NCBI GenBank assembly: GCA_050084515.1
Contig: CM114271.1
Location: 14,508,001 to 14,572,000, forward strand
Direction: 5' to 3'
DNA length: 64,000 nucleotides
Source: Blasia pusilla
Lineage: Eukaryota
Shown here one piece after another: positions 1 to 64,000 of the stretch. Below the pieces are notes generated by a model. That model did no database searches. It was not told the origin of the DNA and saw only the letters and a program-made list of their open reading frames with translations. Made by a program: the position numbers and the translations under genes. Each line of letters begins with the position of its first letter. Within the stretch, counting starts at the first letter, position 1.

Positions 1-840
1 TGCAGTGACATCTAGCACACGTAGGATCGTGCCGCTTGCTGTAAATACACGTAATCTCCACGATGAAACCTCCTAATCCCGGACGGGTGCGTTTAGGGTC
101 CGCGCCCATCCGCGTCCGTCAGCGCCCGTCGCCGCCCGTCTGTCGCCCGTTGCCGCCCGTCCTTCGCCCCTCGCCCGTCGCCGCCGCGCCCTAACCCTAG
201 ACCGGCCGCGACCTAGCTAGCCATCTTTACTTAACAGCCCCCCGACGGCTGCAAGACCCAAATCTTCTTTTCTTCTCTCTCTCAACACCCTCACTCGCGT
301 ACACCCGACGCCTACTCCGTACTACACTCTGCCGTTGTGCCCAATTCCTGTGCACAAAATCTGAGAAAAACGGACAGCACCAGCCCCCTGCCATCTTTCT
401 CATGTAAAAATAAAGAGAAGTAAAAACGGCACACCCCGCCTAAAACTCCACTCCTCAATCTACATCGGCATATCGAGCCTCGTCCACCCTGTGCTATCAA
501 GGAATCCAGACGCTAGCACCCTAGTCCTAGCTTACACACATACAAGGGAGGTGCTCCAACGGCCCAACATGAGAAAGATGGCTTAGGAAAGCCATCTTCC
601 TCTCTTATATAGGGTTGGGAAGAGCCAAAAGGCTCTTCCCCTAGAAATAGCCCTCCCCTTGGTAGCCTGCGCGCACAGGTTACTAGGGGCGGGTGACCTG
701 GTCAACAAGTCACCCGGCTGTAAAAGATCTCAACATGAAAGTTATCAAAAACGAATGGACCTATCCTCAACCTCATCCGACACCATGGGACAAAGCTACA
801 CTCAAGATAGTCCGCTGGCTCCTACGCCCTATCCACGATA
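1..840 (-). mobile_element. Internally deleted copy (E0) of the split-repeat Gypsy-type family: 5' repeat A1, self-primer site and 5' UTR fused to a post-integrase fragment
   Basis: Minus strand begins TATCGTGG at 840 (cf. TGTCACG/TGTCATG family ends). TATA-like TATATAAG near 604-611. 567-582 is the perfect reverse complement of 390-405. 1-82 on minus translates PGIRRFHRGDYVYLQQAA, matching the post-integrase region of the other copies. Confidence 0.6.
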
Positions 841-3074
841 GATCTCGGCCTATCACCTGCTCAGATGTGAGCCGGGTTCCCGCATTCATGGGATTGGCGA
901 ACTTCTATCGGCGATACGTCAAGGGATTCAATTTGATTGCGAAGCCACTAACCTTGGTGACCAAGGTGGATCACGAGTGGCACCAGGGGGATGAGCAAGA
1001 GCGAGCATTTCAGTTGCTCAAGGAGAGGTTGACGTCTGCGCCCATCTTGAGGAGACCGATCAGGGGGCGTCCTTTTCAATTGCACACAGATTGAAGCATA
1101 TTGGGACTTGGAGCGGTGCTCACCCAGCATGATGATGAGGATAGAGAGTTCATGGTGGCTTGCGCTAGCCGCTCGAACAACGCTGCAGAGGCAAAGTACA
1201 ACTCGTATGAGGGTGAGTGCTTGGCTGCGGTGTGGGCTGTCACGCATTTCACGTGTTCCTTATTCGGCGACCCCTTTACCATCATCACTGATCATCAACC
1301 ACCGAAGTGGTTGATGGAGTCCGACAAGCTTACAGGGAAGCTTGCGAGATGAGCTCTGTTGTTGCAGGAGTATGATTTTCAGGTGGTACATAGACCTGGG
1401 ATGCTCAACCAAGATGCAGATGGGTTGAGTCGTAACCCATGCCCAAGTCAGCGAGATGCGACTGGAGCTTGATGGCATGGAGAGAGTGATGAGGAGTTGG
1501 TGCTAGGATGGCACGCGTCAGCCTATTTAGGCATGTTGGCTATGGAGAGCCATAGTGTGGAGACTTCGATGGCGAGGTCTAATGGAGAGTCCTTGGATCC
1601 CGAGGCCAGTGAGGAGACGACAGATGGCCGAGATATTCATGATGATGGAGTAGTCTTGGAGTACCTTCGTACTGGCAGCGATGCGAGCACTCTGGGTGCT
1701 AGAGAGCGAGATCGGATCCTACAACGGGCCAGACGGTTACGTTGGGAGGGGACACATGTTTTGAGGGTTTGGGAGGATGGCAAAGTACGCGTAGTGCCGC
1801 ATCCTTTGTAGAGAGCACGATTAGTGTAGCATGCCCACGAGGAGTTGGGTCACTTTGGGGTGAAGCGGACGTACAGCTTGCTCCAGATTCAGTATTGGTG
1901 GCGAGGCATGCAGACAGACGTTGAGCATTTTGTTGCCTAATGCATGGTGTGTGATCGGGTTCGAGCCTCATTCAATGCTCCGACTCCACACTTGCATCCA
2001 TTACCGATCATGGGCTTAGGGTATAGATGGAGTTTGGATTTTGCAGGACCTTTGCCTTTGACAGAGCGTCACAGTCGTTATGTGTTGGTGATGGTCGAGC
2101 ACTTCTCAAAGTGGATCGAGTTGGTTGCATTGCCTGACAAAGCGAGTGAGGGAGTAGCTTATGCCCTCCTCGAGAGAGTGCTGAGTCATTATGGCGCACC
2201 GGCTGAGGTGCTGACAGACCAGGGTACCGAGTTTCGGGGTGAGTTCCAAGTCTTGTGTGATCAAGCGCTAATCGACCACCGCAAGACTTCGCGAGATCAT
2301 CCCGAGGCGGATGGATTAGCGGAGAGAGTTGTGTAGACGGTGAAGAGGGGTTTACACAAGTATGGCTTGCAGAGAGATCACCTAGGAGATTGGGACCTCC
2401 AGTTTCCATGGTTGGCGATGGGATACAGATTCAGCAGGAAGGCATCCTTAGCGTCTTTTTCATCGTACTTGCTACTTTATGGCCGAGAGCCAGATTTACC
2501 TATGGCCATTCATCGAGATGCTAGTGAGGTGATGGACCTTGATGACCCACATGTATGGGTGCGAGCATGTTCTTTGAGGGCTGAGTTGTTTTGGAGAGTG
2601 ATGCCCATGGCGCTCGAGAACTTGGCGATTGTGCAGCATCGGGATACGTTGAGGTATGCGACTATTTGGGGTGGTGATTATCGACCAACTATCTGGAGGT
2701 TTCATCAAGGAGATTATGTCTACTTGCAGCAGACAGCACCGACGACGTTGGATGTGACTGCAGGGCACACTATCTTGAGAGTGCGTGACATTTTGCCATC
2801 TGGTGTTCTCTTGCTGGAGGGACGCGATGGGTTGGTATGGAAGGACCATGTGCGTAATTGTGCACCATGTCACCTTCCTAACATTGATGGTACAGTGGAT
2901 CCGAGCTTAGCAGTAGTTCCTGCAGGCTTGCGTTGTATGTTGTGTGGTTCTGCCCGTGGTGCGGTCACGATGCTAGTCTGTGATGGTTGTTCGAGAGGTT
3001 GGCATATGGCATGTCTGACAAAGCCTCTCACTAGGGTTCCTCGGGGACGATGGATGTGTCCCAGATGTACATAG
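841..3074 (+). pseudogene. pol: pol remnant: RT connection/RNase H, DDE integrase, PHD finger (2934-3068)
   Basis: One frame broken by stops. C4HC3 motif CMLC...CDGC..WH..C...CPRC at the end. Confidence 0.92.
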
Positions 3075-3260
3075 AGGAGATACTAGATAGGTTTCGATCC
3101 CGACTTTTTCTCTAACATGGATGAGAGGAAGGCGACTAACGATGGGGCCACATGAACACCCGACCTTCTTGCTCTTAGCGTCCGAGAGATGTATGTCATG
3201 GTAGGTAGGGATAGATGGTTATCTGGAGTAAGTGGGACCTAACCACCAACTAGGGGGGTG

Positions 3261-3388
3261 ATTGGAGATATTTTGGTACTTCTTATCTCGTTGTTTGGAT
3301 GCCATGAGTTAGCATGGGATCGTGCGTGTTTGTGTGTGTGTTCAGTGACAGTGATGTATGTTGTGTAGCAATGTGTATGTGCACGACA
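3261..3388 (+). repeat. Repeat B1 of E1 (128 bp), copy of 3906-4033
   Basis: ATTGGAGAT...GCACGACA occurs at both positions. Follows the purine tract TAGGGGGG at 3251-3258. Confidence 0.95.
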
Positions 3389-3390
3389 GT

Positions 3391-4033
3391 TGTCACGTCC
3401 TTTAGGATAGATCGGTGAGATCTAGTAGAGTGTCTTCAAGAGTAGTGGAGAACAGGCCTAGGAGGTCGAGGATGACGTGCTGAGGCCCCGGGAAACCTGA
3501 GAGAGCAGGTTTTCCCTTCGTTTTGGCTCATTTGGAGCCATATTGAAGAACTTGCTATTTTAGGCAAGTACTATTTTGAGTATATGATCGACTTTCTATT
3601 TTTGGTTAGCGACCCTTGATCTCCTACATCAGGTCAAGAACCAAGGAGGTGACTTGGGAGAATAGGTTACCATGGAGAGAGCTTGGGAGAGGGGAGGGGT
3701 ATATATCCCAAGGAGAGAGAGCTTGAGAGCTCATTCTCTCTTTGTTGAACCTCTTGGCATGAGGCGGCGGAGCTATGGTCCCTTGCCTTGTGAGTGTAAC
3801 CCAAGCCTCTCATTAGGAGAGTGGGTTTGGTTTGACATGAGAGAGAGTGCACACCTTTGAGAGCTATGGTGTGAGATTGTGTAGAGAGAGATTAGATCTT
3901 ACTTTATTGGAGATCTTTTGGTACTTCTTGTCTCGTTGTTTGGATGCCATGAGTTAGCATGGGATCGTGCGTGTTTGTGTGTGTGTTCGGTGACAGCGAT
4001 GTATATTGTGTAGCGATGTGTATGCGCACGACA
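3391..4033 (+). repeat. Terminal repeat A2+B2 of E1 (TGTCACG...CACGACA)
   Basis: Near-identical to 21305-21948 and similar to 22931-23574. TG...CA ends; TATA-like TATATAT near 3700. Confidence 0.95.
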
Positions 4034-6400
4034 GTGGTCCTACCAATCGGGCATACGAGATGGTCGACCGGGGTAGAGGATAAGGTTGCACGATTTAATA
4101 GCAGAGTTTAGGAGTTGGTGCGACTCCCAGCGCGCCAGGAACTCTAGAGAGTTAAACCCATTTATAGCATGGAACAGTATGTTTCATAATTTAGAGGGGG
4201 CGCCCATGGACGATTACCATGAGTTCTCTCAGAGATATGCACGTGAGATCGAGGCATGGAGGCTCTACTATGACCTTCATTATGTGTCATGGACGGAGGC
4301 ATTCCCAAATGAGGAGGAGGAGTCAGGAGAGGCTACTTTCTCTTCCACTAGTGACGTCTTAGGAGGGGTCACTCACACATGAGCACTTGCACCGTCTAGT
4401 CGGGTTCGTCCCAGGTTCAACCCTGTGGTTGAGTTCTTTGCTGAGTCGAGGGCGAGCTACCAGGGGGTACGGACGGAGAAGTTGCGGAGCATCCACGACT
4501 TCTAGAGGCGCCCGGGTGAGAGTTTGCGTGAGGCTTACACTCGCTTGCGCCAGTTGATCAATGTCACTCAATGGGTGACAAAGGCTTAGGCTATCCAGTC
4601 ATAGTACGCGATGCTCCAACGGACCTTGAAGATACGGGTTCGGGAGGGGGTGCTTCTTATGAACATCTCCCGTTGAGAGATGTTTTTAGGACTACCGAGA
4701 ATATTGAGCGCAACATGGCGGAGGAGAGCGTAGCCACCATGGGTTTTGGGCGAGAGCAGTCGTGATTGTCTACAACAACGTAGACTCCGAGATAGGTCGA
4801 CTGTGGCACCACGAGCTCAGGGAGGGTATCAGGAGGCCGTGCCACAAAGACCTATGCCTTCATATGTGGCTGAGCAATAGTCGCCTATTATTACTTGTTG
4901 GTCATGTGGTGGAGTCCATCATCAACACGATTGTACTCGTCAGGGTCATGGACGTGTGCCTTTGCATGGAGGAGGAGATGGTGTTGCACCAAGAGGTTAT
5001 CAGTGTGACTCTTGTGAGAGGTATGGTCATACACTCGCGAGATGTTTTAGTTTACATCTTGAGTTACGTCCATACCGAGGGCTAGAGAGGGCACCAAATC
5101 GAGTAGCCCGTCTAGGTGGGCCTAGAGATCGTGCACTTGGTGGTCCCGTTAGGGGACAAGGAGCAGGAGTTGCCCAACAGGGTGGTAGACCTGCCCGTGG
5201 AGGAGGTAGAGTACCACCACCTAGACATGCCGAGGGAGACATCAGACATGAGGCTGCGATGGCTGCTCAGATACAACATCTACATGAGCATATTGCCACT
5301 ATGGCATTGACGTTATCCGATGCCGGATCCATGTCATCGACATCATATGGAGGTGGCAAAGATATGCAGGATCCTGGTTGGATGTGCGGGGTTGCCCAAA
5401 TGGGGGCCGCCATAGTTGTGAAGCGTGGAGCAACCGCAGAGTTGGATCCAGAGCGAGGGAAAGCCAGAAAAAAGACTAAGCTTCCTCAGTCTTTCACGTT
5501 GTCCAAAGCGATGCGGACCACATTGATGGGTCCTCATCAAAGTTCCTGGAGAGTTGGTGATATTGTTGGTGTGCACTCTTGGAGGGCGATGGGAGAAGCG
5601 AGTGCGACGACTCCTATTTTTGATCCTTAGGAGGGGCACGCGTCGAGCACGTTGTTGGGGGCGGCTAGTGTTGTGTACCGCACTCCTTTATTTTCTGCTT
5701 CCGATGTTGTGACGTTGGGGGTGACGCCCGCCAAGGGTTTTTGGCTGGCCGCTTTACTATGTGAGCGCGGAGTTGGAGTTCTTGCATCACGTTCAGAGGT
5801 GATTGCAGAGGAGGTGATGGACTTGCCCTTGGAGCGGATGCTCAGGCCATCCACGTGAGATTCATGGCAAGCTGCGGGTGCTAGGATGGCGGAGATGCCC
5901 GCTAGAACCGCGATAGAGCGTGCCATGGCTTCTCCTGGTGTTTTGTTGTTGGATAACCAAGGAGATGTCTTCTAGTTGGTGAGTCCCGGAGATAGAGCTT
6001 TTAGTCTGCAGCACGTCTTGTTGGATTCAGGAGGGCAGCCCTTGATCTTAGGGAAAGCGTCATTTAGAGGATTGGGCTTGACGAGAGCCAATGTCGAGCA
6101 TTTTCCATTCCGGATATAGACATCCTTGGGTGGAGTGAGTACCATATAGTTTATCACCCGATATGAGGTCATGGTGAGGATTCTCCCTGAATACCCTATA
6201 GATGAGTCCGTGGTGCGAGCCAAGGCAATAGTGACTGATGCAGAGTCCTACGACGTCTTGGTTGGTGGAGCAGTGTTATATTCGTTGGGGTTTTCCCTGG
6301 ATTACTAGGAGGATTCAGCGTCCTATAGACGAGGATGGTAGTCAAGTGATGGGCGCCTTAGCTCATTACCTGTTCAATTCACCGGTGCAGTGATCGAGCG
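4034..6400 (+). pseudogene. gag-pol: gag (CCHC knuckles, RGG-rich) and aspartic protease remnant of E2
   Basis: CDSCERYGHTLARC near 5003-5044. Protease HVLLDSGGQP with DSG at 6024-6032; YDVLVGG near 6249-6269. Confidence 0.8.
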
Positions 6401-6737
6401 ACGGCCAAGAGAGGTGGAGACCTTAGTAGCATTTAGCGATGCCATCACTTGGCCTAGTGATTTGATTGAGGGACATGTCCATGCACAGGATACTCCCGTT
6501 CCTAACATTTCTATGGAGAGGAGTGTTATGGTAGCTGCATCATTCCGTGGAGGAGAGGTGCCGTTGTGGGGCTCAACTGAGGAGCTTTGACGATTGGCAG
6601 ATGAGCACGTGCAGACCGCGTGGAGCGAGGCATTTGCACGGAAGTATGACGGGTCAGAGGAACCCGAGGTAGCAGGGAGTGCAGCGATAACACCCTTGGA
6701 TACCACACCCATTGAATGGTGTATCCCGGAGCAGGGT

Positions 6738-7433
6738 ATTCGAGTATTAGATCTCTTTGTAGGGATTAGCACTAGATTAGCTGCTATTTTGTAGGAAGGA
6801 GTGCGAGTGCAGTAGTACCTGTATGTGGAGAGTGATAATGTTGCGAGGCGCATCTCACTACAACATATGGCGCAATTACGCCTAGGTTTTCCATACTAAT
6901 TATTTGCGTTCGCGGTACAGGGGTACCAGAGTTTCCTACTGAGAGATAGTTCGTTGTTGGGGGCGCAAGACTTAGAGCGGATAGGGAAAATTGATTTGGT
7001 CATTTCCGGTTGGCCATGTCAAGGCCAATCAAGTGTTGGACGAGGCAGCGGGTTGGCTGACACTCAATCCAGGTTATTTTGGGAGATGTTGAGGGTCTTA
7101 CAACAGTTGCAGGAGCACCAGTCTCGTTCTCCAACCTACATTCTCGAAAATGTGCCGATCTTAGGAGACTCTAGGTCACGGGTGGTGACGAGTGCTCATC
7201 AAGTGCGTGCCTGGATTGGCCCAACAATGTTCTTGGATGCGGCAGTGTAGGTTCTAGAGCCCATCGCCCGCGTCTATGGTGGACCAACTTGGTGCCCCAT
7301 GCGGTGCTAAAAAGGGCGTATGCAAGAGTGGAGCGCCCCTTCCATTTGTTAGTGGATTCCATTCTAGATCCAGGTTGTCGATCACAAGCCATGAGGCACG
7401 ATGATTGACCACCGATGACTATGGTCAACAGGG
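6738..7433 (+). pseudogene. DNMT3-like C5 cytosine methyltransferase domain of E2, N-terminal part (motifs I-VIII)
   Basis: IRVLDLFVGIST (motif I), IDLVISGWPCQG (IV), RLFWEMLRVL, YILENVP (VI), DAA..GSRAHRPRLWWTNL (VIII). Collinear with the DNMT3 catalytic domain. Confidence 0.88.
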
Positions 7434-7729
7434 TGTGGAAAACCGCTAAACAAGCATAACTGGTGGAAAACGGCTCTCACACACACACACACCACCATGG
7501 AGAACAAAATTTGTAATGAGAGAATGAATGGAGGCTGGTCCTCTTCTCAATTATATAGGATATGTATCCTTAACCATAGTCTCAAGTTAGTCTAACTGTG
7601 ATTAACTAACCCTAGTTAAAATAATCATTTTTAACTGACTAACCAAGATTAAGCTTCCCTATTTCGTATGAGTGCCAAATGTAGCAGTTCAGGTGTCTCA
7701 TAAGCTTGATTGTAATTCAATCTTCAATA
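7434..7729 (-). repeat. Copia 3' LTR
   Basis: Direct repeat of 19231-19540; adjacent PPT TTTGAGGGGAG on the minus strand. Confidence 0.93.
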
Positions 7730-7740
7730 CTCCCCTCAAA

Positions 7741-11103: not shown

Positions 11104-11416
11104 CCTTATATAGGGCTGTAGTGTCTAGGTAGAGATGCAGTTCCATAGATAGGGTTGGGGATTACTCTGTTGAGGGTGACTTTTCTAGTAGGGCCCGCTC
11201 TTAGGTAGGAGGATATAGTATCCAGTGCACTCAAAGAACAGTTAGTTCTTTGAGTAGAGCGTGTTGCGTTGAGAATTAGCCTTGGTAGTGAGTTGAGCTC
11301 TTGGCTATGGTGATTCCCGCAAGCTTCGACCTGGATTCTCCCATTGTGGAGTGGGTTTGGCTCGATTGTATGTGATTGTATACCCGTTTAATGACAATAG
11401 GTCTTTCACGAATTTC
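11104..11416 (+). repeat. 5' repeat A1 of E3 (no B segment follows)
   Basis: Aligns with 17998-18310 and stops exactly where B2 starts in the 3' copy. Confidence 0.9.
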
Positions 11417-11428
11417 ACTCAAAGAACT
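11417..11428 (+). promoter_or_regulatory. Putative self-priming primer-binding site
   Basis: ACTCAAAGAACT is the exact reverse complement of AGTTCTTTGAGT (11244-11255), which lies about 30 nt after a TATA-like GATATAG. Confidence 0.65.
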
Positions 11429-13560: not shown

Positions 13561-13682
13561 CTTGGTGTGATGTTGTTATACCTCACGAGGAAGAGGAGGC
13601 TCCACGACGGACTCCTACTTCTGGTCCAGTTGGGTTATCCCCTTTGGATACTACACCCATTGTATGGCAGTATCCGCTCGAG

Positions 13683-14320
13683 GGCATTTGTGTGTTAGAT
13701 CTCTTTGGTGGGATTAGCATTGGTTTGGCTGCAGTGTTGCAGGCCGGTATTCTTGTGCAGAGAAACGTGTATGTGGAGCGAGATGAGACAGCCCAGAGAG
13801 TCTCATCTTGACATATTGGTCAGTTGATGCGGAGATATCCTAAGTTGTTGCCGCCATCAGCTATTCGTGGGTACCAGCGTGCTTTGCCATCACATATTGT
13901 ATTGTTGGGGGCGCAGGATCTTGAGAGGGTTGGTCGTGTGGATTTGATGATTGCTGGATGGCCATATGCATGTCAGGATCATACACGTGTTGGTTGTGGT
14001 GAGGGATTACACAACCCTAGATCTCGATTGTTTTGGGAAACGTTACGGGTGTTACGACATCTTTAAGTTCATCAGGCACGTGCTCCAGTTTACATTCTGG
14101 AGAATATTCCATTGTTTGGTGGCACTCGGACCCGGATGATGGCGAGTGTTCATGAGGTGCGGTCTTAGATTGGACCAGCGGTGTTGTTGGATGCAGCGCA
14201 AGTTGGATCGCGTGTACATCGTGCGATGGGATTTGCTATTGGTGTGACATCGGTTGCTTCCATTTCTGAGGCTTCACGACGTCATGTGTTGGGTCAGGCC
14301 ATGGACCTGGATTTTGAATC
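13683..14320 (+). pseudogene. DNMT3-like methyltransferase domain of E3 (internal deletion near 14222)
   Basis: ICVLDLFGGISIGLAAVLQAGI, VDLMIAGWP(YA)CQD, RLFWETLRVL, YILENIP, DAAQVGSRVHR|AMGF...RRHVLGQAMDL. Confidence 0.86.
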
Positions 14321-19230: not shown

Positions 19231-19540
19231 TGTGGAAAACTGCTAAATAAGCATAACTGGTGGAAAACGGATCTCACACACACACCACCATGGAGAACGA
19301 AATTTGCAATGAGAGAATGAATGGAGGTTGGTCCTCTTCTCAATTATATAGGGTATGTACAAGCAACCCTAACCCTATCCTTAACCATAGTCTCAAGTTA
19401 GCCTAATTGTGATTCACTAATCCTAGTTAAGATAATCGTGCTTAACAAACTAACCAAGATTAAGCTTCCCTACTTTGTGTTAGTGCCAAATGTAGCAGTT
19501 CAAGTGTCTCATGAGCTTGATTGTAACTCAATCTTCAAAA
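19231..19540 (-). repeat. Copia 5' LTR
   Basis: Direct repeat of 7434-7729, followed on the minus strand by a PBS. Confidence 0.93.
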
Positions 19541-19545
19541 CAGAG

Positions 19546-25650: not shown

Positions 25651-26139
25651 AAGATTAATACGAGGCATATATCTTAAACCGGATGATTAGAACTATCCTA
25701 ATGGACTTTAGGATTGGATTTTCCGTCGTTCTGATTGGTTTAGGTTTCGGTTGAATGGCTAAATCATGCGGAGGCGTTCGTACAGTTTAGAGGAGGTTTC
25801 CACATGCTGTAAGGTAGTCCATAAGTATTAGAAGGTTCGCACATGACTATCTGCAATGAGCGAAGGCCATAGTTTGTCCCGGAAACTCAATCAATGCGCG
25901 TAGGGTAGCGCCTACCTCGAGCTGCCCCGGGCCCATGTTTCAGGTTCGGGAGCCTCGGGATGGAGAGGTCGCGATGGAGGACAGGGAGTCGGACGTCCAG
26001 AGACGGACGGATTTAAACGGACGCCGTCCGGATCTAAACGGACGGCGCTAAACGGAGGGGACGGGAGGGTAGGGAGGACGGGGAGGGATGGACGTCAGTT
26101 CCCTCCCCGGCGTTAGGGCTCGAGCGGCTCGAATTCCTG

Positions 26140-26704
26140 GCAAGTCTCGAATTCTTGGAGGTTGATGTTGTTGCGGGAGGACGGGGAGGGATGGAGAACT
26201 GTTGTTGCAGGAGGACGTTAGTCTCGAATTCCTGACCGACAAACTTTTTGAGCGAAATCGCAAGTCTCAAATTCCTGGCCTGGCCTTGGAGGTTGCTGTT
26301 GTTGCGGGAGGACGGGGAGGGATGGAGAACTGTTGTTGCGGGAGGACGTTAGTCTCGAATTCATGACCGACAAACTTTTTGAGCGAAATCGCAAGTCTCG
26401 AATTCCTGGCCTGGCCTTGGAGGTTGATGTTGTTGCGGGAGGACGGGGAGGGATGGAGAACGTCCGGGGCAAGACGGCGTTAGTCTCGAATTCCTGACGG
26501 ACAGCATTTTTGAGCGAAATCGCAAGTCTCGAATTCCTGGCCCGGCCTTGGAGGTTGCTGTTGTTGCGGGAGGACGGGGAGGGATGGAGAACGTCCGGGG
26601 CAAGACGGCGTTAGTCTCGAATTCCTGACCGACTGCATTTTTGAGCGAAATCACAAGTCTCGAATTCCTGGCCCGGCCTTGGAGGTTGCTGTTGTTGCAG
26701 AGGA
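26140..26704. repeat. Subterminal tandem repeat, 131-bp period, about 4.3 copies
   Basis: TTGGAGGTTG recurs at 26155, 26286, 26417, 26548 and 26679. Confidence 0.92.
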
Positions 26705-28197
26705 TCACGCAGACTTTCTTTTCTGGGGTTTCCGCTACTTGGCAGGGGCGATACGTGTTTACTGGCATGTGGAGGGATTCGGGACGTACATGAAGCCAGG
26801 GATGCAGACGTTTTGCGAGGCTAAAGGCGCATGGTCTCTTAGCAGGGCCGAGTGAGACATCAGCAGACTGGAAGCTGGAAGCATTCAGATTTCTACGAGG
26901 AAACCGCAGTCGATGTGCGTTGATTGATAAAGCCAGGGGCCGGATGCGTCTTGCAATTTAACTGTTTTTTCTGAGCGGGCTTTCTAATCTCTTGCCGGCG
27001 GTGAAAGGCGAATAGCATAGGGCACATGCAGGTCGCAAAGCTGGTACGTCAACAATGCTCGTATGCAGCACTTCCAATGTTGAGTGTAGAAAATACCTCA
27101 ATTTTTCATCTGCTTTTCAGCAACACGTACTGTTCGTCCGGATGAGTTTCAGTACCTGTTTGACCGGGTTGATGAAGGTGCTATTCCCGTTTAGTGTCGT
27201 CATTCCTCGTTAATCCTCACGCCCGTCGATTTTTTGTAATTGCCACTAGATGCTTCCACTGATAGTTTTACTGAAAGTTCCATAGTCTAAGCTCCAGAGT
27301 TTCTTGCAAACTAATGGATACACGTTTAAAAAAAAGTAGGAGGTGGAAAGAGTGATTTTCAAAGGTTGCCATCGCTTTCAAGGTCAGTGTCGTGGTGGCA
27401 TCTAACCTTCCATACTGCTGTTTTGAATTTGGTAAATGGTAATTCAGATCGATGCAAAGACATAACCGTGGCTTTGGAAAGTTAGATTCGAATGGTTCAT
27501 GAAACTAGAGGAATTTTGGGTCGGAGCAGACATCGATTCTTTGACTCCTTTTTTTCTCCCTCGAGCAAAAGCAAAGCACCTTCCCTCACACCATTGTAAG
27601 CTTCTCTTCCATAGATACCGTGCTCGCGGTGTTCTCACTTTGCGTTTCGGTGAGAACAAGCTTCTCTGTCAAAAGGTTCACGGTTTCGCGATAAAAGCCA
27701 TGGAAGAGATCATGCTTTGGGATCGGGATTTCCTTTCCTATGGAAGGTTTCAGTATGACACACACTGAGACCACCTTGAAACTTGCTGAAAATTCTAAAG
27801 ATATCCCTTTCTAAACCAGTAATTGTTCCTAAAGCAATAACACACCTCTCTCAACGGTTCATCATCCTCGGAGATTCTGAAGCAACCATGTTTGCATCAT
27901 GCCCTCGAGTTGTGGATAAATTCACCTGGCAGCCTGCAAGACGAATCTCTTCGGCCATGGGCGCTTTCTAGGGTGTCCATACTGTCATGCTTGATTCCGG
28001 TGTCTTGGGGTTCTTGCTCTATTCAGGATCATGACCGCAAATCCGATCTGCTTAAACCGACTACGTGATTTGGGATAGCCAAACTGGCTGGTGGGTATTC
28101 ACATTGTCGCTGCCCTCTCTTGCCGCTGGATATTTTGGCCTTAGTCTGGTCATTGGGGTCTATGGGCATCTGAAAATTTATCGTAGTTTGGCAATAG

Positions 28198-32797: not shown

Positions 32798-33700
32798 TTC
32801 TATTTTGTGCAGGTGCAATGCAGGCCGTTTGGTGTATCGCTTCTGGGGCACATTTTCCCTTACCATTTTCTGTGTTATGAAGGTCTATCCAAGAAGGTTA
32901 GGTTACCTTAGTTGGGCTATAGGTCATGGTCTGCTGAACTATTGTGGATGAAATGGTATGGACCAAAAGGATACCATTGTCAATCAAATTAATCATACAA
33001 CTTGCAGAGCTATTCTTGATCTTTGTCCCTAAGTTTGTACTCTTGAATGATACCTTAACAAATTCCTCCTTACCTTATTCCGATGTGTCTTACATGTTAT
33101 GAATGATCACATGTGCCTCCACCTGTAATTGGTGGTAAACTTTGTAATCCTGTGAGGATCAATGTTTTGTCCCACGCTTGTCGATTCCTGAATTTCCAAG
33201 AAAGTAAAGCACTCATGTGTAATCACCTCATGAATAGATAGAGTCCATGACACCCTATTCAAAAATAAAAGACAAATGGTCGAAACACTCAGAGCAAATA
33301 CAAGTTTAGTGATCAGAAATGCAGTGACACGAAAAATGTATGAACAGCGAAATGTAGGTGTTCATTCATGAACACCTCAAAGGCTGTGTTTCAAGGGCAT
33401 TTGCTTCATACATCGGACAATCAATTCTAGCCTTCTTGTTGCGTATCCCCCAGTCGTCAATCCATTGTGACAATCTCGGTTAGATACGATTTTAATCAAG
33501 CCCTAATTAGGGGAAGGTCACCTCACACCGCTAAATGTTTACGAAGAGGCACGACCCTCAGGGGTAGGGTTCGTGGGCCTTCTGAGGTGTTTTTTTTTAG
33601 TTACGACTATAGAAGTAGTCAGAACTATATTACAGAAGTTCTCTAAAATTGACACAAGCGCGTGGCGGTGCGGACATGCCCCTAAAGTATGCCGCACGGT

Positions 33701-33832
33701 GTTGCGGACGTGGTTCGGGTTCAAACATACCTCGTTGCGGACGTGGTTCGGGTTCAAACATACCTCATTGCGGACGTGGTTCGGGTTCATACATACCTCG
33801 TTGCGGACGTGGTTCGGGTTCAAACATACCTC
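33701..33832. repeat. 33-bp minisatellite, 4 copies
   Basis: GTTGCGGACGTGGTTCGGGTTCAAACATACCTC x4, near-perfect. Confidence 0.95.
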
Positions 33833-34580
33833 GTACGTTTACTACATCCATAGAAAACCGACTGTGGTAACCATAGTTTGGATGCTTGAATATTAATTGA
33901 ATTGGGTTCGAACTATTACTATACAAAACCGTGAAGACAGGTTACTATGGTTCACAATATGGCCTACATGATGGTTACTATCGTTTGGATGCTTGCGTAA
34001 AAACTAAACATGATTGCTCGCCGTACATGAAAATGGGACATGGTGGACATGAACATGAGAAGGGAACACATTTCTCGTGCGTAAACATCCGGTACATAAA
34101 AAATACATTTTTTTTGTTGAACACCACATTTCTTGTGTTCTGTGCTAATATGTGAAATTCGGAAATGCTTCATGAATCATGAATGGGAATCTGTACTACA
34201 TACAAATTATCGGGTCTTCTTGAGTACTCATCGGATTGACTATCCTCTCGCAACATATCGCTCTTCATCCAATGACTATCAAGTATGACATCTGCAGTGG
34301 TTCTCTTTGTAGTAGTGCTGATTTTGTAGTTCTTATGTGGCCTTGTATCAACCAGAGGCCATTCTCGATCGTTGAGTATTCTCCTTAGTTGCCTCGCTTT
34401 CATATTGGCTCACGATAGCCCAAATCAAGATGATTACATGCATCCGCTTCCAATTCCGCCTCCATGTTCGATATTTTGATCGTTTCACTCGGGAAAGGAC
34501 TCCACCTGATTCATTGTTGCTTGGGGTTGATTCTTCCATGTGGAACGTGTGGAATGTGAATTCCTTCTCGATGCATCCGC

Positions 34581-37340: not shown

Positions 37341-40300
37341 CTTGAATTTCACCATGGCTATAAGCTGTTCAGGGATTCAAGTGCAGGCTCCAATTAAAGT
37401 GCAGACTTCAAGTGCAGGCTTAAAGTGTGAATTCTGTCCATTCGACTTGGGCAAGACCGGACAGTACATAAATGGAACCGAACACCAAAATTATAGTGCA
37501 CATAATAATAGACATGTTTTCCTGGATTACGATCTAAGCTTTTATCTATCACCATGGCTGAATGTGTGGCACTGATAGCTACTTACGTGCAAATTGGAAA
37601 ATGATACTCACGGACGCAAAGAATCTCTTACATGAAAGTTACGGAGTGGACCCCATCCGCCTAATCTGGCTTGAAATCCGCGGTCCGCAGCTCGCAGCAG
37701 TTCGACTTACAACTAATCAAGCTCGTAATGAAATGCTAATACGCTGATAATCACAGCTAATCACGGTCTCTGCTCTTCCTCGTTCCCTCTTTCTCCTCGC
37801 GCGCCCTTTGTATTCCTCGGTTCCGGGTCTTCCGCTCGTAATCAAATGCTAATCCGCTCGTAATCAAATGCTAATCCCTCCGTGTTCGGTTTCTACCGCT
37901 CTTCTCCTTTCTTTCCAAAATGATCGAATCCCCTAATTCCCGCCCTAATACCCGTCGACAAATTCTGTCATTTGAATGGACGACGTAAATGACGGACGCG
38001 CCGCCGTGTCCGTCCGCCGCCGTCCGATTAGCGCCGTCTCGTTTAGATCCGTCCGTCTCGGACGGCGTCCGTCTCCGAATGTTGTCCTCCCTGTCCTCCG
38101 TCGCGACCTCTTTACCCTGAGTCGCGACCTCTCCATACCGGGGCTCCCAAACCTGAAACCTAGGCCCGACCCAGCTCGAGGTAGACGCTACCCTGGGCGC
38201 CTTGAATGCGATTCTGGGACAAAGTATGGGCTTCGGCAATGAGCGAAAGATCCATCTTCTCTTTCCCACCATTTCTTTTCTTTTTGGCTTTCTTCTTTTT
38301 CGATAAGGATCTTGCAATACGACATGTCTTTGACAAAACCGAACTTTTTTACTACGTTTTGTGAGTCCTTTCTAAAATTATGAAACTCTCTAAGAACAGT
38401 TTATATTTCAGTTTTCATTTCAAAGAAATTGGTTTTACTTTTCTTACGTAAGAAACTTCAATACAAATTAATTTCGAGGAATTTGAAATGAGATAAAGTT
38501 ACGACGATAGACAATTTTTTTAAAATCTTGTGAATGAATGCACCTCCCAAATCCCCATAAACACCAATATCATACTATTCAAGAGCCATATTCTAAAACT
38601 TGTCAATAATGCAAGGCAATTAAAGCCCAAGGCCTCCTAATCGGAGTTTACGCCAAACACAAAATCTTAAAATTGGAGTTGGATTTTTCACATCTCACCT
38701 TCTACAATTCTTTGTCTCCACACGAATTAATTAGTAATTATAATAAAGTGTGAATATATTCAATTAGGAAGAAAGGAGAAGACATAGGTCACAATTTCAA
38801 AAAAGTCGTATTTTAGAAGGCACCATTTTGATATTTATTCATTTTTTAGAATTCATTTAATATTAAAAAAGGGTAATAATGACTTTAGGATTCATTGAGT
38901 GAATATACCAAGACATATGAGATATACCATCCAATCTATGAGGGAAAAAGCTTCAATTGTTTAGTTCATCGGGACTTGAAAAGAGAGAAAACTATTAAGG
39001 GAATGAAGAAAATCTAAGAAATACAATTAACATTTCAATCCCCTTTGAAGTATGGGAGAATTCTCATTGTTAAAGATCATAGTAGAGTAATGATCGTATA
39101 CTAAAACGTGCAAGATCTATTCTTATAAAGAAGTATTTTAGACCCCAAATAAGAAGAATTTTTCTTTCAAATTTTGCCACACCATAAATTCCATAAAGAT
39201 ATATCATCCAAGCATTCTTGGACCATATATATATATAATGAGTTATTTATCTAAGATTAAGTTACTTATGTAGTTTTAGTAAAGGGTTTTTGATGATGAT
39301 ACACCAAAAGTGACTTGTGGAGATTAAAGTGATTTATTGCCACTTGCCATGATTTAGAGAAATGGATTGTACAACAAGCACATCTTATCCATGTCTTAAA
39401 TACATAAAGTGGGAGGGGAAATCATGCTCTTCAACTAAACTTTTATTCTCTCTTTTGGCAAGACAATTTCCCTTTGCACACATTTACTTATTGTCTACGA
39501 TTTGTATTTTTTGTAATGTAACAATGTCATAGCTTTCAAGAGTGTGAAGAATATTTAGGCGTATAGGAGAAGATATAAGATTTTTTGTGATGTTGTCATA
39601 CCAAGGCTTTACCAAATCCCATTAGAACTCTGTAATTTAGTGTCCTTGAGCCAAAATCATATTGGGATGGGTGACCTTTTTGTGAAGTCTTGTTGCTCCA
39701 TCCAACCTTTAGGCCGGTAGGGGGATTGTCCCCTTCTTTTTCTTTCACTCGGGCCAGGTATGGCCTTCACGTAGTTGATTCTTTGAGCATCCCCCCCCCT
39801 CTTTGCACTTTTGATAGATTTCCCCATCATCCTTTTATGTAGGCTTTCTTATTCCTTTAAGAGAGAAAATGAAAGAGATGTTATAAAGAAACTAGTATAT
39901 ATTCCAATTTTAGTGCCTTTAATGCATAAATGTTATTGAGTGAACACTAGCCATTTGATGTAACTCTATTCTTCTGAATATCTTAAAAATTGTGGTACTT
40001 AACAAACATCTTCATGAGCTCAAGTTAAATCTCTCGAGATTTCAAGTTTTGAACAAAGTGTTGTGACAAAATTTAAGGCATTACGCAGGGTTTAGGGTAA
40101 TTGGACTCGTAAGTGCCCATAAGGGACAGATGTATAGATCCCTGTTTAGAAGATTAGATTTAATAAGTCCACTCTTCAAAAGGAAGAAAAGAGACACACA
40201 ATATGACCACAAAAAGTATTAACTAAATCTTTGAGGCATGTATCAAGCAACAAGTAGTCACCCAGAGAACTGCAAGTAGAATATAGATTATGCCAAGGTG

Positions 40301-42182
40301 CTTTGCCCGTAGTTAAGTATTATGGATTTTTTTACAAAAACAGTCATAATCAAGGTTAAGTGACTTGTACTCCGTCTTTGAAACCAAGATCCAGGTATTT
40401 TTCCAAAATTTCAATATTTTTTCCTACGTATATTTAAGGTTTTCCCAACTCTGGTCTATATTGATAGAATTACGAAGGATATCCACACATGCAATTGATT
40501 TTTGGCTAATGATTGAGAAATGGAGACAAAAATTCTCCCCAACATTGTTAAAAACGTTACACATGCCTCAAAAGAAGTGAGTATACGTTTCTCACCAAAA
40601 ATTGTGAGGGACGTGCCGCATTTTTTGACTAGAGATGAATCAGATAACGAGGTGAGGCTTGTGACCTCCCTCGTAAGTGGATTATTCTTTATTTGGCATG
40701 AAAGAAAATTGATCAATAAATAGTAAAACCAAACAATAAACATAATTTCGAACTTGAGATGAGACAATGAATTCATAGTACATTCCTGAATCTTACATGG
40801 TTAGATATGAACAAAAATTATGATGTTCAACAATTATCAATCACGGTGTATCGCCAAAAGACTTTAGTCTGGAATGATCCATCGGCAAACAGTGCTTTTC
40901 GAGGCATTAATGGGATACACATGATGCGTCGAAGATGAAAGGATTTCCGAAACTAGGAAGGTGCTACGACACTTGCCATAAATACTACGACAGAAGCATT
41001 CCTCAAAAGTTCATGCATTCCTACAAAGAATGCATCAACAAAATAAGAATTAAGTTCCGTACGCTGTTAACTTGACATAAACTTGACGTTGTTCACTAGT
41101 GGACAACTCATGTCTTTCACAAGAATGAAGGGACTAATCACAAAAACTTTTTTTTCTTGTTGATTTAAAGGCAATAAGAAAACATTTTCTTATTGCCTTT
41201 AAATAGAAAACATTTTCTTAATACTTCAAAATTACCCGATAATCACATGTGACTTGTTCACAAATCAAAAAGGCCCTTTTTTATAATGATAAAAAATATC
41301 ATGCCAATTACCAAACCTCCGTTGCACTTTGACATTTGCAAATAGAGGGCTCCTCCGTTTCATATGGGCAAGGACTACATCCATATTTTGACGGAGGATA
41401 ATCTTCTGGTCTCCAGATTGGTGGAGGTGCTCTGCAGAAGTAGGAACAGTAATGCCGACAGTTGCTGCGGTGCTGGAAGACTGGGTCAAAACTACATTCC
41501 AAGGTCATTCTTGAAGAGTTCCGTCTTCTCGAGAGCAGGTTTGTGAGCTACTAATACGAGACCATAAGTGCAGATTCCAAATTCCGTCAACCCAAAGGCA
41601 TGCCACTAACAGGGGGTCGGACATCACGTTTTGGAGCTGAACTAGGGACTGTACTGGTGATCAATGAGTTGAGTACCAACTCACACCGTAATTTTTCAAA
41701 TGTCGTCACAGGTAGCACAGCAGGCATGGACATTTGATTGTATTTCCCTGTGGATACTCTTTTTCTGGAAATTGAAGGTTTTGACCGACTCCAAATGTTA
41801 GCAAAACAGTTCTTTTGACCTTCGAATTCAGATGTTTCAGTCTTAAGATAGAAGTTGTCAAGGTCTTGAGAACAATCACGAGGGCAATCCTACCAAGCAA
41901 TGTGCATACTGGTCAGGTGCCTCGCATCATGCTTTAGGGTGACTTCTCCAACATGAAGTCGTGACAACTTAGCAGAAGTAATCAAATGGAAGCCAAGCTT
42001 TCCTACAGTGGTGAATTGGTGCATTTCCATGTGGACAGTAAATTTACAGATTTCCTCAACCCTACAAAAGAAGCCGATCATATTTACTGGCTACGAAACT
42101 CAAGACAGCACAATCTTGGTGCATTTTCAGACTCTAATTGGATTCTATTCAATAAATACATCAAATCATGACTGTCCTGTAC

Positions 42183-57655: not shown

Positions 57656-60055
57656 TGGATTCAAAACTGCTCCGAGTATGAGGCTGCTTGCGTAGGATGT
57701 AGTTAGATTTGGGAATTTTTAAGATTATTCAAACCATTCTAAAGTCGTGCGTCGTTAATGGGGGTGAGGTATTTGGAAATATATTGATCTTATTGATAGG
57801 TATAAGCCATGCAGTGTCGATTGTGTTACCAATATGGATACCTGTAGTCCGTGAGAGAGATTGGATTGTGTGTAGAAAGAGATGGAAAATTTATTGGAAC
57901 AATGTGAATGCTGATTTGTTGTGTAATATGCAATGGTAATTTGTATTAAAATATTGTGAAAATCAGTAGGGAGAATAGGTGTCGGAAGCCCTTATTAGTA
58001 TATTTGGAAATCAATAAGAGGTAAAGTGTATTTGGAATGCAAAATGTATTGGATGATTGGTTGAAGAGCTAGATGGAAATTATTGACTGCAGAAAAACAT
58101 GTAGATAATAATGAGATAGAGATGTATCTTGTGGAAAAGGGTGAGAGGGCTTGAGGCCTCTATTGCCAAAATTAGATGAATCTAAGAACAAAGTAGAAAT
58201 TGCTCTCAAGTCTTAGCATACTTAGTCTCATATATTGCTATCTATGGGGTCACTTGCATAGCGGTGACTGAACTATATTAGCTTGGAGCATGAGCTTTGC
58301 ATCACCACTAATAAGAGGCTGGATGTGAGGAAGGAAATCCTTGAAATATTCACTTCCATCCTTGAGCTTTTGAGTAATAAGAGATATGTATGAAGTATTC
58401 ATGTCAATCTTCTTGTAGAGGGAGGAGAGAAGATCATCATGCACATCAAACTTAATATGAAATTTAGCCAACTCCTCCTGTGTAGTTGTAAGCTCAAATA
58501 GTGTATCTTGGAAGAGTCGAAGAGGAACTGAATTTTGAGGATGGCGAGTCGAAGAAGATGCCAAGGATTGCTGATGAGAATCCTGCAATAGGAAAAATCA
58601 ATGTGGATGTAAGAAAGAAGAGACTGGCATAGCAACATATGAATGTTGTAAGAATTCGGTCCATAATGTGTTACATAGTAAGCAAGGAAGTACGAGATGT
58701 ATCAGAGGTCTCAAGTATGGTTGGTTAAGAAGTGAAGTATATAAAAGAGATATCGCGTAAACCAATGTAATTATACATCTAAGTAGGCGGAGAGAAAATC
58801 AGTGGCATGTGGCGTGAAATTGTTGAAGCAGAAACAATAGAAGATACATATGGAAGCGACGTTGAGGAAAAAAATAGTCCAAGGAGAATAGAAAGGTTGA
58901 AGTAAGAAAGTTAGGTACAAAGAGCTAGTTATATGGTTGAAGATTATACGCACTTGCATTTTGTTGGCGATGTCACAAGAGTGGAAGATTCAAATGCATT
59001 GCGATCTCAGTGTCGTGCAAATACACATCGTTTCCAACATACATCAGCTCTCATGCACACACATGTCTAAGATCCATCTACCTATCAATCATAACATATC
59101 TACACATGAACGACCAGACAACCCCAATATAAAATTGAATATGCACTATAAACTTAGATGAAATCTGCAATCAACCGTGCTTCATCCAAACAACCATATA
59201 CATTAATCAAATACACACTGGTGTAATAGCAAGAGAAAGTGTACACAAGGACTCCCAAAATATGTGTGATCTTTCTTATTAATTGCTCCTAGCCCATTCT
59301 TCAAGAGAGAATCCAAGCTCGATACATGCAAGCCGTACTGTATCACGGATCCCAACAAGGGTCTGCAATCCTAAGGAGATGAGTTCCAAATGAGCTTCAT
59401 CCAAGATATACCCCCCTGGGCACCTCCATGGATGACTTGTACATACAGGTCACCTCCCTCCAAGCAGGTCACTACCCACCTATAGTACACCCATACTAGC
59501 TCCCTAACAACTACATATGTGGTCCCCTCATGAGACCAACTACCAACTAACCCGTGACCCTATAGGTCCAAGTGGAGCCATACATGGTTGGGAAGCTCAA
59601 CCTCTCCAAGGTTGTCACTCCTCATAAAGGGAAGGGTGATCTACACTCATAGATCACCTCCTAAGAGCAGGTCACATATTACCTCTCGGAATAGGGAAGT
59701 ACAAGACCCTTCTAAGGCCTCGATACTATCGCGCCCTACGCCTCATCTACCATGACAGACGTTGTGCGAATACACATCGCTACCAACATACATCATTTGT
59801 CATGCACACATATGTCTAAGATCCATCTAGCTATGAATCCTAACATCTCTACACGTGAACGATTGGACAATCCCAATCGTCCCCCTAGTTGGTGGTTAGG
59901 TCCCTCTAACTCCAAATAGCCTACAAAACAAGTCTAAATCTTATGCATCTTTTTGATGCTAAGATCACGAGGTCAAGTGCTATGTCGCCCCATCGTTAGT
60001 CACCTTCTTGCAATCCATAACATCGAGAGTCATCTTGTAATCCACCTATGCCATC

Positions 60056-62869: not shown

Positions 62870-63803
62870 AAGACACTTCAGGTCCATAGTCTGACCCAAC
62901 ACTTGTTTACGGGATGCCTCTGCCATCATAGGCACCATCGTTGTACCTCTAGAGAACCCCATAGCTTGCACTTGCTCGTGAGCATTGGGCTCCATCAGTG
63001 TACTTTCTTGTTCATGCCATATCATGCTTGGTCCTAGCTCCGACGAAAAGCATGAGATGATGGAAAACTCACCAACATAGGAAATGTTGCCCTTTGCTGG
63101 CCCACCCGATTGGCCACTGCCAACTATGGTACATCATCACCAGTAACAACTTGAGATCTCCGCCTTGGATCCAAGATCGCATCCACTATAAGTAGTGATA
63201 GTCTCTGGACTCCATTGTAAGCCCACCTTAGCAACTTGGATGGTAAAAGGTTCATCCACCACAATCGTGGAAGGTGTGCGCACAATCCAACACTCGCCGC
63301 ATCCAACATCACCGCCAATCCTATCCACGACCGCACTTGATGTACACTTTCCATCACTCAGGCTTGCGTGTGACCTAACAATGGGTCATTCTCTAAAATG
63401 TAGGTTGGAGAACATCGCTAGGTAGTCTACCAGTGTCGAAGAACTCGCAACATCTCCCAAAACATGGCCAACCTCGGGTCTTGCAAACCAAGTCCTCGAA
63501 CCGCCAAAGAATGACCCTAACATGGCCACCCTTCCACCACTAGGTGTATTAGACCAGCCCTATCCAGATCTAGTGCCCCCAACAACAAAATGTTGGCTGG
63601 AAATACATATTGATATCCCTTGACTGTAGACATTGGCAATAACGGAGGATACTGCAGGACTAGTTTCGACACATGATGTAATGAGATTCTACGTGCAGTC
63701 TCATCTCTTTCAAGATACAAGTACTGATGTACTTGTACTCTGGCCTACAACAATGCAGCCAATGATGTACTAATCCCTCCAAAGAGATCCAGTATACGTA
63801 CAC
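62870..63803 (-). pseudogene. DNMT3-like methyltransferase domain of E5
   Basis: VRILDLFGGIST, LVVEGWPC, PTYILEN, DAASVG.CAH.PRLWWMNL, EQVQAMGF...RKQVLGQTMDL. Confidence 0.86.
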
Positions 63804-64000
63804 TCTCCTCCGGATATTGCCACACAATCAGTGTGGTGTACAAGGGTGTCAACGTCTCCACTCCTAGAGCACGTGGTAACTCTGTCCCGTCTCACTCTAG
63901 AGCATAAACTCGGCTCCACGCTTGCCTCATGAGCTCGTCTACTCTCCTCTGCAAATTGATGCTCGTTCCCCAAAAGCTGAAGAAGTGTCGCCAACAAATG

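Follow-up and report, generated by a model that had tools for sequence, protein, structure and literature searches.

A putative self-priming signal and split A-B repeats in methyltransferase-bearing Gypsy elements of Blasia pusilla

Near the start of the 64,000-nt stretch of Blasia pusilla DNA analysed here (the window; G000:C1:14508001-14572000 of a 390-Mb genome), two 16-nt arms at 567-582 and 390-405 face each other as an inverted pair within a minus-strand repeat. The earlier note had seen a counterpart of different sequence in an element called E3, presumably the family Q element at about 11.0-18.4 kb, and had taken the shared structure as support for self-primed reverse transcription and for 5' ends consisting only of one repeat part, A. 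The locus raises two questions: is the pair a priming signal, and how does an element integrate whose two ends are not the same?

The inverted pair and the deleted copy that carries it

With positions 330-860 as query, 40 of 3214 candidates were scored and 19 sister loci were fetched, ten of which were extended to 19.9 kb. All 19 match positions 870 to 378 at 92-93% and have a common left boundary; we refer to them as family S. Positions 406-840, proposed earlier as a repeat, do belong to a repeat of this family, but the extent has to be corrected, as A spans about 872-406. The copy in the window is a 1.4-kb minus-strand remnant composed of A1, PBS, a shortened leader, the integrase end, PHD, a purine tract and B1; BLAST comparison with the sisters showed that everything from gag to most of the integrase is missing. 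The features used below, including those of three further families (P, Q and R), are:

1..85, minus strand: end of the integrase in the 3' remnant; PHD, purine tract and B1 follow before the window, as far as G000:C1:14507474; 89-92% identical to sister 3' regions
96..389, minus strand: GC-rich leader remnant, about 110 bp missing at 378 (BLAST against sisters)
393..405, minus strand: predicted PBS, its first base directly after the end of A (arm 390-405 of the earlier note); from A|PBS junctions and predicted fold
406..870, minus strand: repeat A1, U3-R-U5-like and 480 bp long in sisters; the 5' ends of 19 sisters match it at 92-93%; sister A2 stops at 406
567..579, minus strand: predicted self-primer, 13 nt from A579 (arm 567-582 of the earlier note), complementary to the PBS
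571..602, minus strand: 14-bp hairpin over the predicted start
605..611, minus strand: TATA-like motif TATATAA, found in most sisters
862..870, minus strand: 9-nt stretch common to element start and host site (empty-site comparison)
871..4033, plus strand: host element of family P, split between RT and RNase H; B1 3261-3388, A2 3391-3905, B2 3906-4033
11244..11428, plus strand: family Q (presumed E3), primer arm 11244-11255, PBS 11417-11428
59012..59877, minus strand: family R 3' end B1-A2-B2, the fourth comparison

Reverse-complemented, 390-405 equals 567-582 over all 16 nt, and this is the sole perfect inverted pair of at least 13 nt in the window (spacer 20-400 nt). Sixty dinucleotide simulations gave an expectation of 0.017 16-mer pairs per window; for 12-mer pairs, three were observed compared to 1.5 expected. 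On the minus strand, TATATAA (611-605) is followed by the hairpin (602-571), the first arm, 161 nt and the second arm, so that both the placement relative to the TATA box and the spacing are as claimed earlier (loop of 161-162 nt here, 160-161 nt in E3). The small hairpin reported to overlap the arm (GATGGC 577-582 with GCCATC 591-596) is present and grows to a 14-bp stem (602-589 with 584-571; z -3.86, none of 200 shuffles equally good), and a B-like segment between the arms was looked for and not found. In the predicted fold of 579-380 the 5' end pairs with the PBS; the 200-nt leader as a whole is no more stable than shuffles (z -1.17). In a fully transcribed A2 copy, the modelled hairpin at 571-602 would hide the primer sequence.

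What did not stand is the weight given to a perfect 16-nt match. Pairing as such is conserved, over 13-14 nt family-wide, and the remaining bases are specific to this copy. Counted from the predicted start, position -1 pairs in 18/20 loci, -2 in 2/20 and -3 in 19/20; PBS position 15 pairs in 2/20 loci, the window's copy among them, and in a set of 30 loci only in the window's copy itself (T in 26, C in 3). This failed pairing rules out a 16-nt primer. With A579 as +1, a start inferred from TATA spacing and chosen partly to fit the pairing, the primer has 13 nt and lies 32 nt from the first T of TATATAA.

Stranded RNA-seq was available from four runs of a related or identical species; most reads are less than 95% identical and stem mostly from other, diverged copies. 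Despite sense reads over A, these reads gave neither a depth step nor a pile of 5' ends at 579. Their sole 5'-end pile lies at 606, inside the TATA motif (5 molecules, one of three raw-read runs), and depth over the PBS is low. Sense transcripts of the host family P reach a depth of 50-110 in three runs, several times that of family S (L130:450-561 and 1962-2100; copy flanks).

Is the pairing more than a peculiarity of one family? Perfect arm/PBS matches at 5' ends were found in 18/20 loci of family S, 12/16 of P and all 14 scored of Q (15 fetched), and in family R a 5' end with PBS is present at 11 of 30 loci, with a perfect match at five of these. The arms measure 13 nt in P (loop 159-160), 12 nt in Q (loop 160-161) and 13 nt in R (longer loop). 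Their letters are unrelated among the four families; each arm starts with A, 30-33 nt after a TATA-like motif (weak in Q and R), and each PBS starts at the first base after A. Hairpins covering the arm reach -22, -20, -15 and -9 kcal/mol in the four families, weak in R. Duplexes of an arm with its own PBS have -15 to -19 kcal/mol, compared to -1 to -8 for cross duplexes; for S and Q (E3), whose arms the earlier note had called unrelated, the values are -16.7 and -15.2 compared to -2.6 and -3.2. In S, P and Q the duplex extends past the 3' end of the primer in no copy, and A2 ends at the same point. At the level of sequence, the self-priming claim is borne out. In all four families the arm appears to match no PBS other than its own, and we regard the pair as very probably a priming signal of the type known from Tf1. 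In addition, directly after the PBS, P leaders (L195-L222) contain short tandem units that resemble it (GAGAGAAT-like).

The window's copy sits within the P element listed above. Its A2 and B2 are absent in 19.7 kb upstream, and B1 is the last part of the copy, its end lying 526 bases before the window. A B-A-B about 16 kb upstream was rejected as its own A2-B2, being 72% identical, on the opposite strand and of another subfamily; the A of this B-A-B also stops at 406. The copy lacks both the terminal TG and the target duplication on its 5' side, presumably because the 9 bases 862-870 are common to host and element start, and we infer their loss via a microhomology deletion. The empty site of the insertion was seen in two loci (L144, L026) and in 130 RNA reads. 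What remains is a dead derivative of the A-internal-B form that has lost most of its interior.

Several other features of the window were recorded. Positions 4034-7432 hold P internal sequence directly after B2, without A1 or PBS, and are 88% identical to a stretch that begins 5.4 kb ahead of the window; these are probably nested P copies. The 85%-identical ends of a different repeat, inserted into P-family copies, lie at 7434-7730, next to RT-like minus-strand sequence, and at 19231-19541. There are tandem arrays at 26023-26808 (131-nt units) and 33669-33865 (33-nt units), a further 12-nt inverted pair at 40230/40561 and a near-perfect 42-nt palindrome at 41163-41204.

Coding content and repeat junctions

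Three sister copies (L029, L033, L035) of about 9.5 kb read A1-PBS-internal-B1-A2-B2, with an A of 480 bp and a B of about 137 bp. The ends are not the same LTR: the left end is A only, the right end is B, and a purine tract precedes B1. The frames of these three copies are broken; their domain order is PF00145, RVT_1, RNase H, integrase zinc finger, rve and PHD, according to a Pfam scan that covered sister copies of family S. PF00145, a C5 methyltransferase upstream of RT, was matched in L027, L029 and L033. RVT_1, RT_RNaseH, Integrase_H2C2 and rve give the Ty3/gypsy order RT - RNase H - integrase; the integrase core (PF00665) matches with E 6.5e-16, and the best solved match to the RT is that of Ty3 (E 2e-55). 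The last frame of L029 contains a PHD finger (E 1e-11) and gave no chromodomain match. No tyrosine recombinase family was matched in 12 of 22 L029 frames (all plus-strand) plus five frames of other copies.

The best named RT match is from the liverwort Calypogeia fissa (77%), followed by Klebsormidium nitens (48%) and Closterium (46%). Relatives of the methyltransferase include many Marchantia proteins, in Marchantia polymorpha at 54-72% identity and annotated as hypothetical genes. The best solved matches of one Marchantia relative, P0124, are DNMT3A/B; the family S query itself gave no solved-structure match, and its assignment to the Dnmt3 type runs through P0124. Methyltransferase-like segments also occur in copies of P, Q and R (window 6650-7430, 13641-14208 and 63285-63891) and are mutually 64-70% alike.

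Exact junctions were counted genome-wide: 812 for A|PBS, 489 for A|B, 500 for purine-tract|B and 331 for B|A, with 0 for each reversed-pattern control; the patterns differ in stringency, and the figures are counts, not ratios. A2 had been predicted to stop at B2. This holds in six of the seven extended sisters with a second A, where A stops at 406 and B follows, and could not apply to the window's copy, which lacks A2-B2. In the seventh (L027:9339-9944; G000:C1, near 9583300), unlike the other six, the second A runs through the PBS and 101 more bases of leader and is joined to the last 29 nt of B; this arrangement may go back to a plus strand that was extended too far, or to a tandem that later suffered a deletion. 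Homology through 390-405 was found only against other 5' ends and this aberrant 3' end.

Among 30 A|PBS loci, B lies upstream only in L120, which is the same place as the aberrant A2 of L027; the earlier reading of 5' ends as A-only appears sound on this evidence. B directly before A+PBS was also observed in L039 (L039:1-1244) and in L267 of family Q; in L039, the 3' internal sequence ahead of B reads as tandem-like. An LTR ending in ...TTACA at 403 was ruled out, as A2 stops at 406 and the integration ends lie elsewhere. Among 30 A|B loci, B lies upstream in 21, seven are solo A-B, two are rearranged and none has A downstream. Thirty purine-tract|B loci comprise 19 that run on into A, ten that end at B like the window's copy and one that is cut; a sample biased to B followed by flank was kept out of these proportions. 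Recombination between B1 and B2, a one-repeat circle, or a linear cDNA cut at both junctions could each account for the A-internal-B form. A further locus (L083/L136, the same place; G000:C1 near 6948300) has a B with a Q-like start and an S-like end, followed by S-type A and B, and is a possible inter-family recombinant.

Given where A2 ends (at the first PBS base) and where B starts (behind the purine tract), reverse transcription should make B-A repeats, and we regard it as probable that B-A is the unit of reverse transcription. The end of A2 at the PBS would also lend indirect support to release of the primer by RNase H.

Integrated ends and a model of the cycle

How, then, are the ends of the integrated element formed? 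In all four families B ends with ...CGACA and A starts with TGTCA. The B|A spacer measures 2 nt in 98 of 100 listed junctions (of 331) and is mostly GC, GT or AC, which suggests an inherited GC decaying through methylation. The integrated termini are TG...CA; among nineteen elements with both ends, the 4-bp TSD is exact in eleven, has one mismatch in six and is absent in two. PBS and purine tract thus bound a repeat B-nn-A, and integration uses a junction inside that repeat.

The second B carries traces of the first. B1/B2 distance is 0.049 within an element compared to 0.059 between elements (p 1.4e-4; 50/54 elements), minority alleles shared by B1 and B2 of one element number 37 compared to 11 ± 3 (maximum 22) in 2000 shuffles, and no alignment column sets B1 apart from B2. 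Of 36 A2|B2 junctions, taken from samples not chosen on that junction, 26 are exact and ten deviate; in two of these a shortened A runs into a B whose start is intact. In family P, one extra A (the first PBS base) occurs in 6/13 copies, unclustered on a poorly resolved tree (p 0.31). These data fit an end-joining event in each cycle, with gene conversion over 600 bp as the possible alternative. At the internal B1|A2 junction, 1-3-nt insertions were found in 4 of 18 measurable copies (19 examined) compared to 1/110 control intervals (a fifth control interval was left out, as its anchor was mis-matched); it looks as if this junction is occasionally cut and repaired.

These observations can be arranged in one scheme, which we somewhat favour as a whole. 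Transcription would start at A579, about 30 nt after the TATA motif. The first 13 nt, whose complementarity to PBS 405-393 is observed, would pair with it, be cut off and prime minus-strand DNA from 406, and the A2 copy of the same 13 nt would be masked by a hairpin for which only A2 supplies the upstream arm. Plus-strand synthesis from the purine tract before B1 would yield a terminal repeat B-nn-A and a cDNA B-A-internal-B-A with the boundaries seen in the genome. The two cDNA ends would then be joined, which would create the A|B junction and restore B2 with B1 as its source. Finally, the two ends used by the DDE integrase would be those that meet at the internal CA-nn-TG junction of the 5' repeat, and A1-internal-B1-A2-B2 would be inserted with the 4-bp duplication and the ends that we find. 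Integration from a joined-end intermediate, taken by itself, has about even chances.

Two simpler products are unsupported. Canonical integration of B-A-internal-B-A would place B before A+PBS, which among 30 loci is the case only in the aberrant L120. A free two-repeat circle opened at random contains two equal B|A junctions and predicts that half of the products are A-B-A-internal-B, but A followed in none of the 30 A|B loci. As this form is lacking, the process is one-sided; we speculate that the 5' repeat is double-stranded long before the 3' repeat during second-strand synthesis. A bolder reading is that streptophyte Gypsy-DNMT3 elements in general are self-primed LTR retrotransposons, that their cDNA ends are joined and that a retroviral-type DDE integrase, instead of using the ends left by reverse transcription, always opens the 2-nt-spaced CA|TG inside the 5' repeat, similar to circle-forming bacterial insertion sequences. 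We tentatively assign it a probability of about 0.45.

The strongest competitor, unlikely but to be taken seriously, retains self-priming and dispenses with the circle: a linear cDNA ending in nn-A and B-nn would be made directly, e.g. if RT jumped from one template end to the other and copied B a second time, and ordinary 2-nt 3' processing would follow. The 2-nt spacer, TG...CA ends and 4-bp TSD suit normal Ty3 integrase chemistry, and the one-sided product (no A-B-A forms in 30 loci) needs no extra assumptions. But the left B must be removed from both strands, for which a mechanism is lacking, and the insertions at the internal junction suggest attack on a junction embedded in DNA.

PAT, TOC1 and Ngaro are DIRS-order elements with split direct repeats. 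Replication in a DIRS/PAT-like manner, in which RNA reaches the end of B2, cDNA starts from there and the hairpin formed by the inverted pair has no more than a regulatory or vestigial role, is improbable here, although the A-B-A-B layout is that of DIRS-type elements. RNA reads do cross B|A (16, sense) and A|B (7 sense, 8 antisense), and as sense reads cross both junctions, B2 can be transcribed. However, such a course leaves the end of A2 at the first PBS base and the start of B after the purine tract unexplained in four families, B2 tracks B1, and the 17 scanned frames gave a DDE core and no tyrosine recombinase, with TSDs present at the ends.

Priming by a host tRNA or tRNA fragment at the PBS, with the leader match being secondary, is more doubtful still. 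For a tRNA 3' end, TGG is expected in the PBS, but the four PBSs differ, all start with A and each matches its own leader. In its favour stands that tRNAs are usual for most plant LTR elements and half-tRNAs for some, according to the accessible text of PMC6317226. The 64-kb window itself contains no tRNA gene. Least credible is a chance inverted repeat or an assembly artefact: 12-nt pairs do arise by chance and the full 16 nt are copy-specific, but chance is refuted by the expectation for 16-mers, by 812 exact junctions against none in the reversed pattern and by the arm/PBS duplexes of the families, and an artefact is disfavoured since the empty site occurs in RNA reads.

Relation to known elements and significance

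Circle-junction transposition of the IS3/IS30 type uses a DDE enzyme on two abutted ends with a 2-3-bp spacer and belongs to bacterial DNA elements. In family S, by contrast, copying of the junction passes through an RNA stage, and the circle is hypothetical. With DIRS-order elements such as SymbioDIRS-Dnmt3, family S shares the layout A-coding-B-A-B; it differs in that a DDE integrase, TG...CA ends and a 4-bp TSD replace the tyrosine recombinase, and in having a PBS and a purine tract.

At the priming step, the resemblance is to Tf1 and Tf2 of Schizosaccharomyces pombe and to plant Tcn1, in which a leader complementary to the PBS lies just after the 5' repeat and, in the text available, priming needs no tRNA (PMC7175516, PMC5341516, PMC6317226). 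In Tf1, as described in the accessible parts of PMC7175516 and PMC5341516, the first 11 RNA bases pair with the PBS and RNase H frees the primer; the primer here measures 12-13 nt instead of 11, and the element has a PHD finger, a methyltransferase and no chromodomain match. Unlike in Tf1 and Tcn1, the repeats are permuted, and the ends of reverse transcription and of integration do not coincide. Family S appears Tf1-like at priming, and is probably neither a chromovirus nor a DIRS element.

The closest described element is KnitGypsy-Dnmt3 of Klebsormidium nitens, with DIRS-type repeats, Gypsy domains and a Dnmt3-type methyltransferase (de Mendoza et al. 2018, PMC5890265). On the accessible part of that paper, Ty3/gypsy Pol, the methyltransferase type and A-coding-B-A-B repeats are common to both; the same text contains no PBS, primer, purine tract, att junction, TSD, PHD finger or mechanism. 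The host of family S is a land plant, as opposed to Klebsormidium, and the K. nitens protein that matches its RT, at 48% identity along the full query, is unnamed and may not be KnitGypsy-Dnmt3 itself. Most likely, family S belongs with KnitGypsy-Dnmt3. In the literature searched, as far as its text was accessible, the name Gypsy-DNMT3 occurs only in PMC5890265 and in a 2026 preprint (10.64898/2026.05.21.726589), whose accessible text mentions streptophyte Gypsy-DNMT3 once and a primer nowhere. This literature, to which subscription papers and Repbase Reports mostly do not belong, holds no account of the priming or integration of these elements in its accessible text; the supplements of PMC5890265 and of the preprint may show repeat ends. 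Self-priming in plants is assigned there to Tcn1 and TAR, with PHD unmentioned in the accessible text (Neumann et al. 2019, PMC6317226).

The A-B-A-B layout of the Klebsormidium Gypsy element appears in one 2018 figure legend and is left unexplained in the text available. From the priming signal, the start and stop points of reverse transcription can be placed; both differ from the integrated ends, and specific predictions follow for cDNA ends, circles and integrase substrates. Self-priming would thereby reach beyond the Tcn1 and TAR lineages named for plants in the accessible text of PMC6317226. LTR finders probably misannotate these families, as they require matching terminal repeats, and the model plant Marchantia polymorpha may carry copies that can be tested. 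If the bolder reading above is true, it would represent a third integration route for LTR-type retroelements, used by families with hundreds of copies each in this genome and with relatives in Marchantia.
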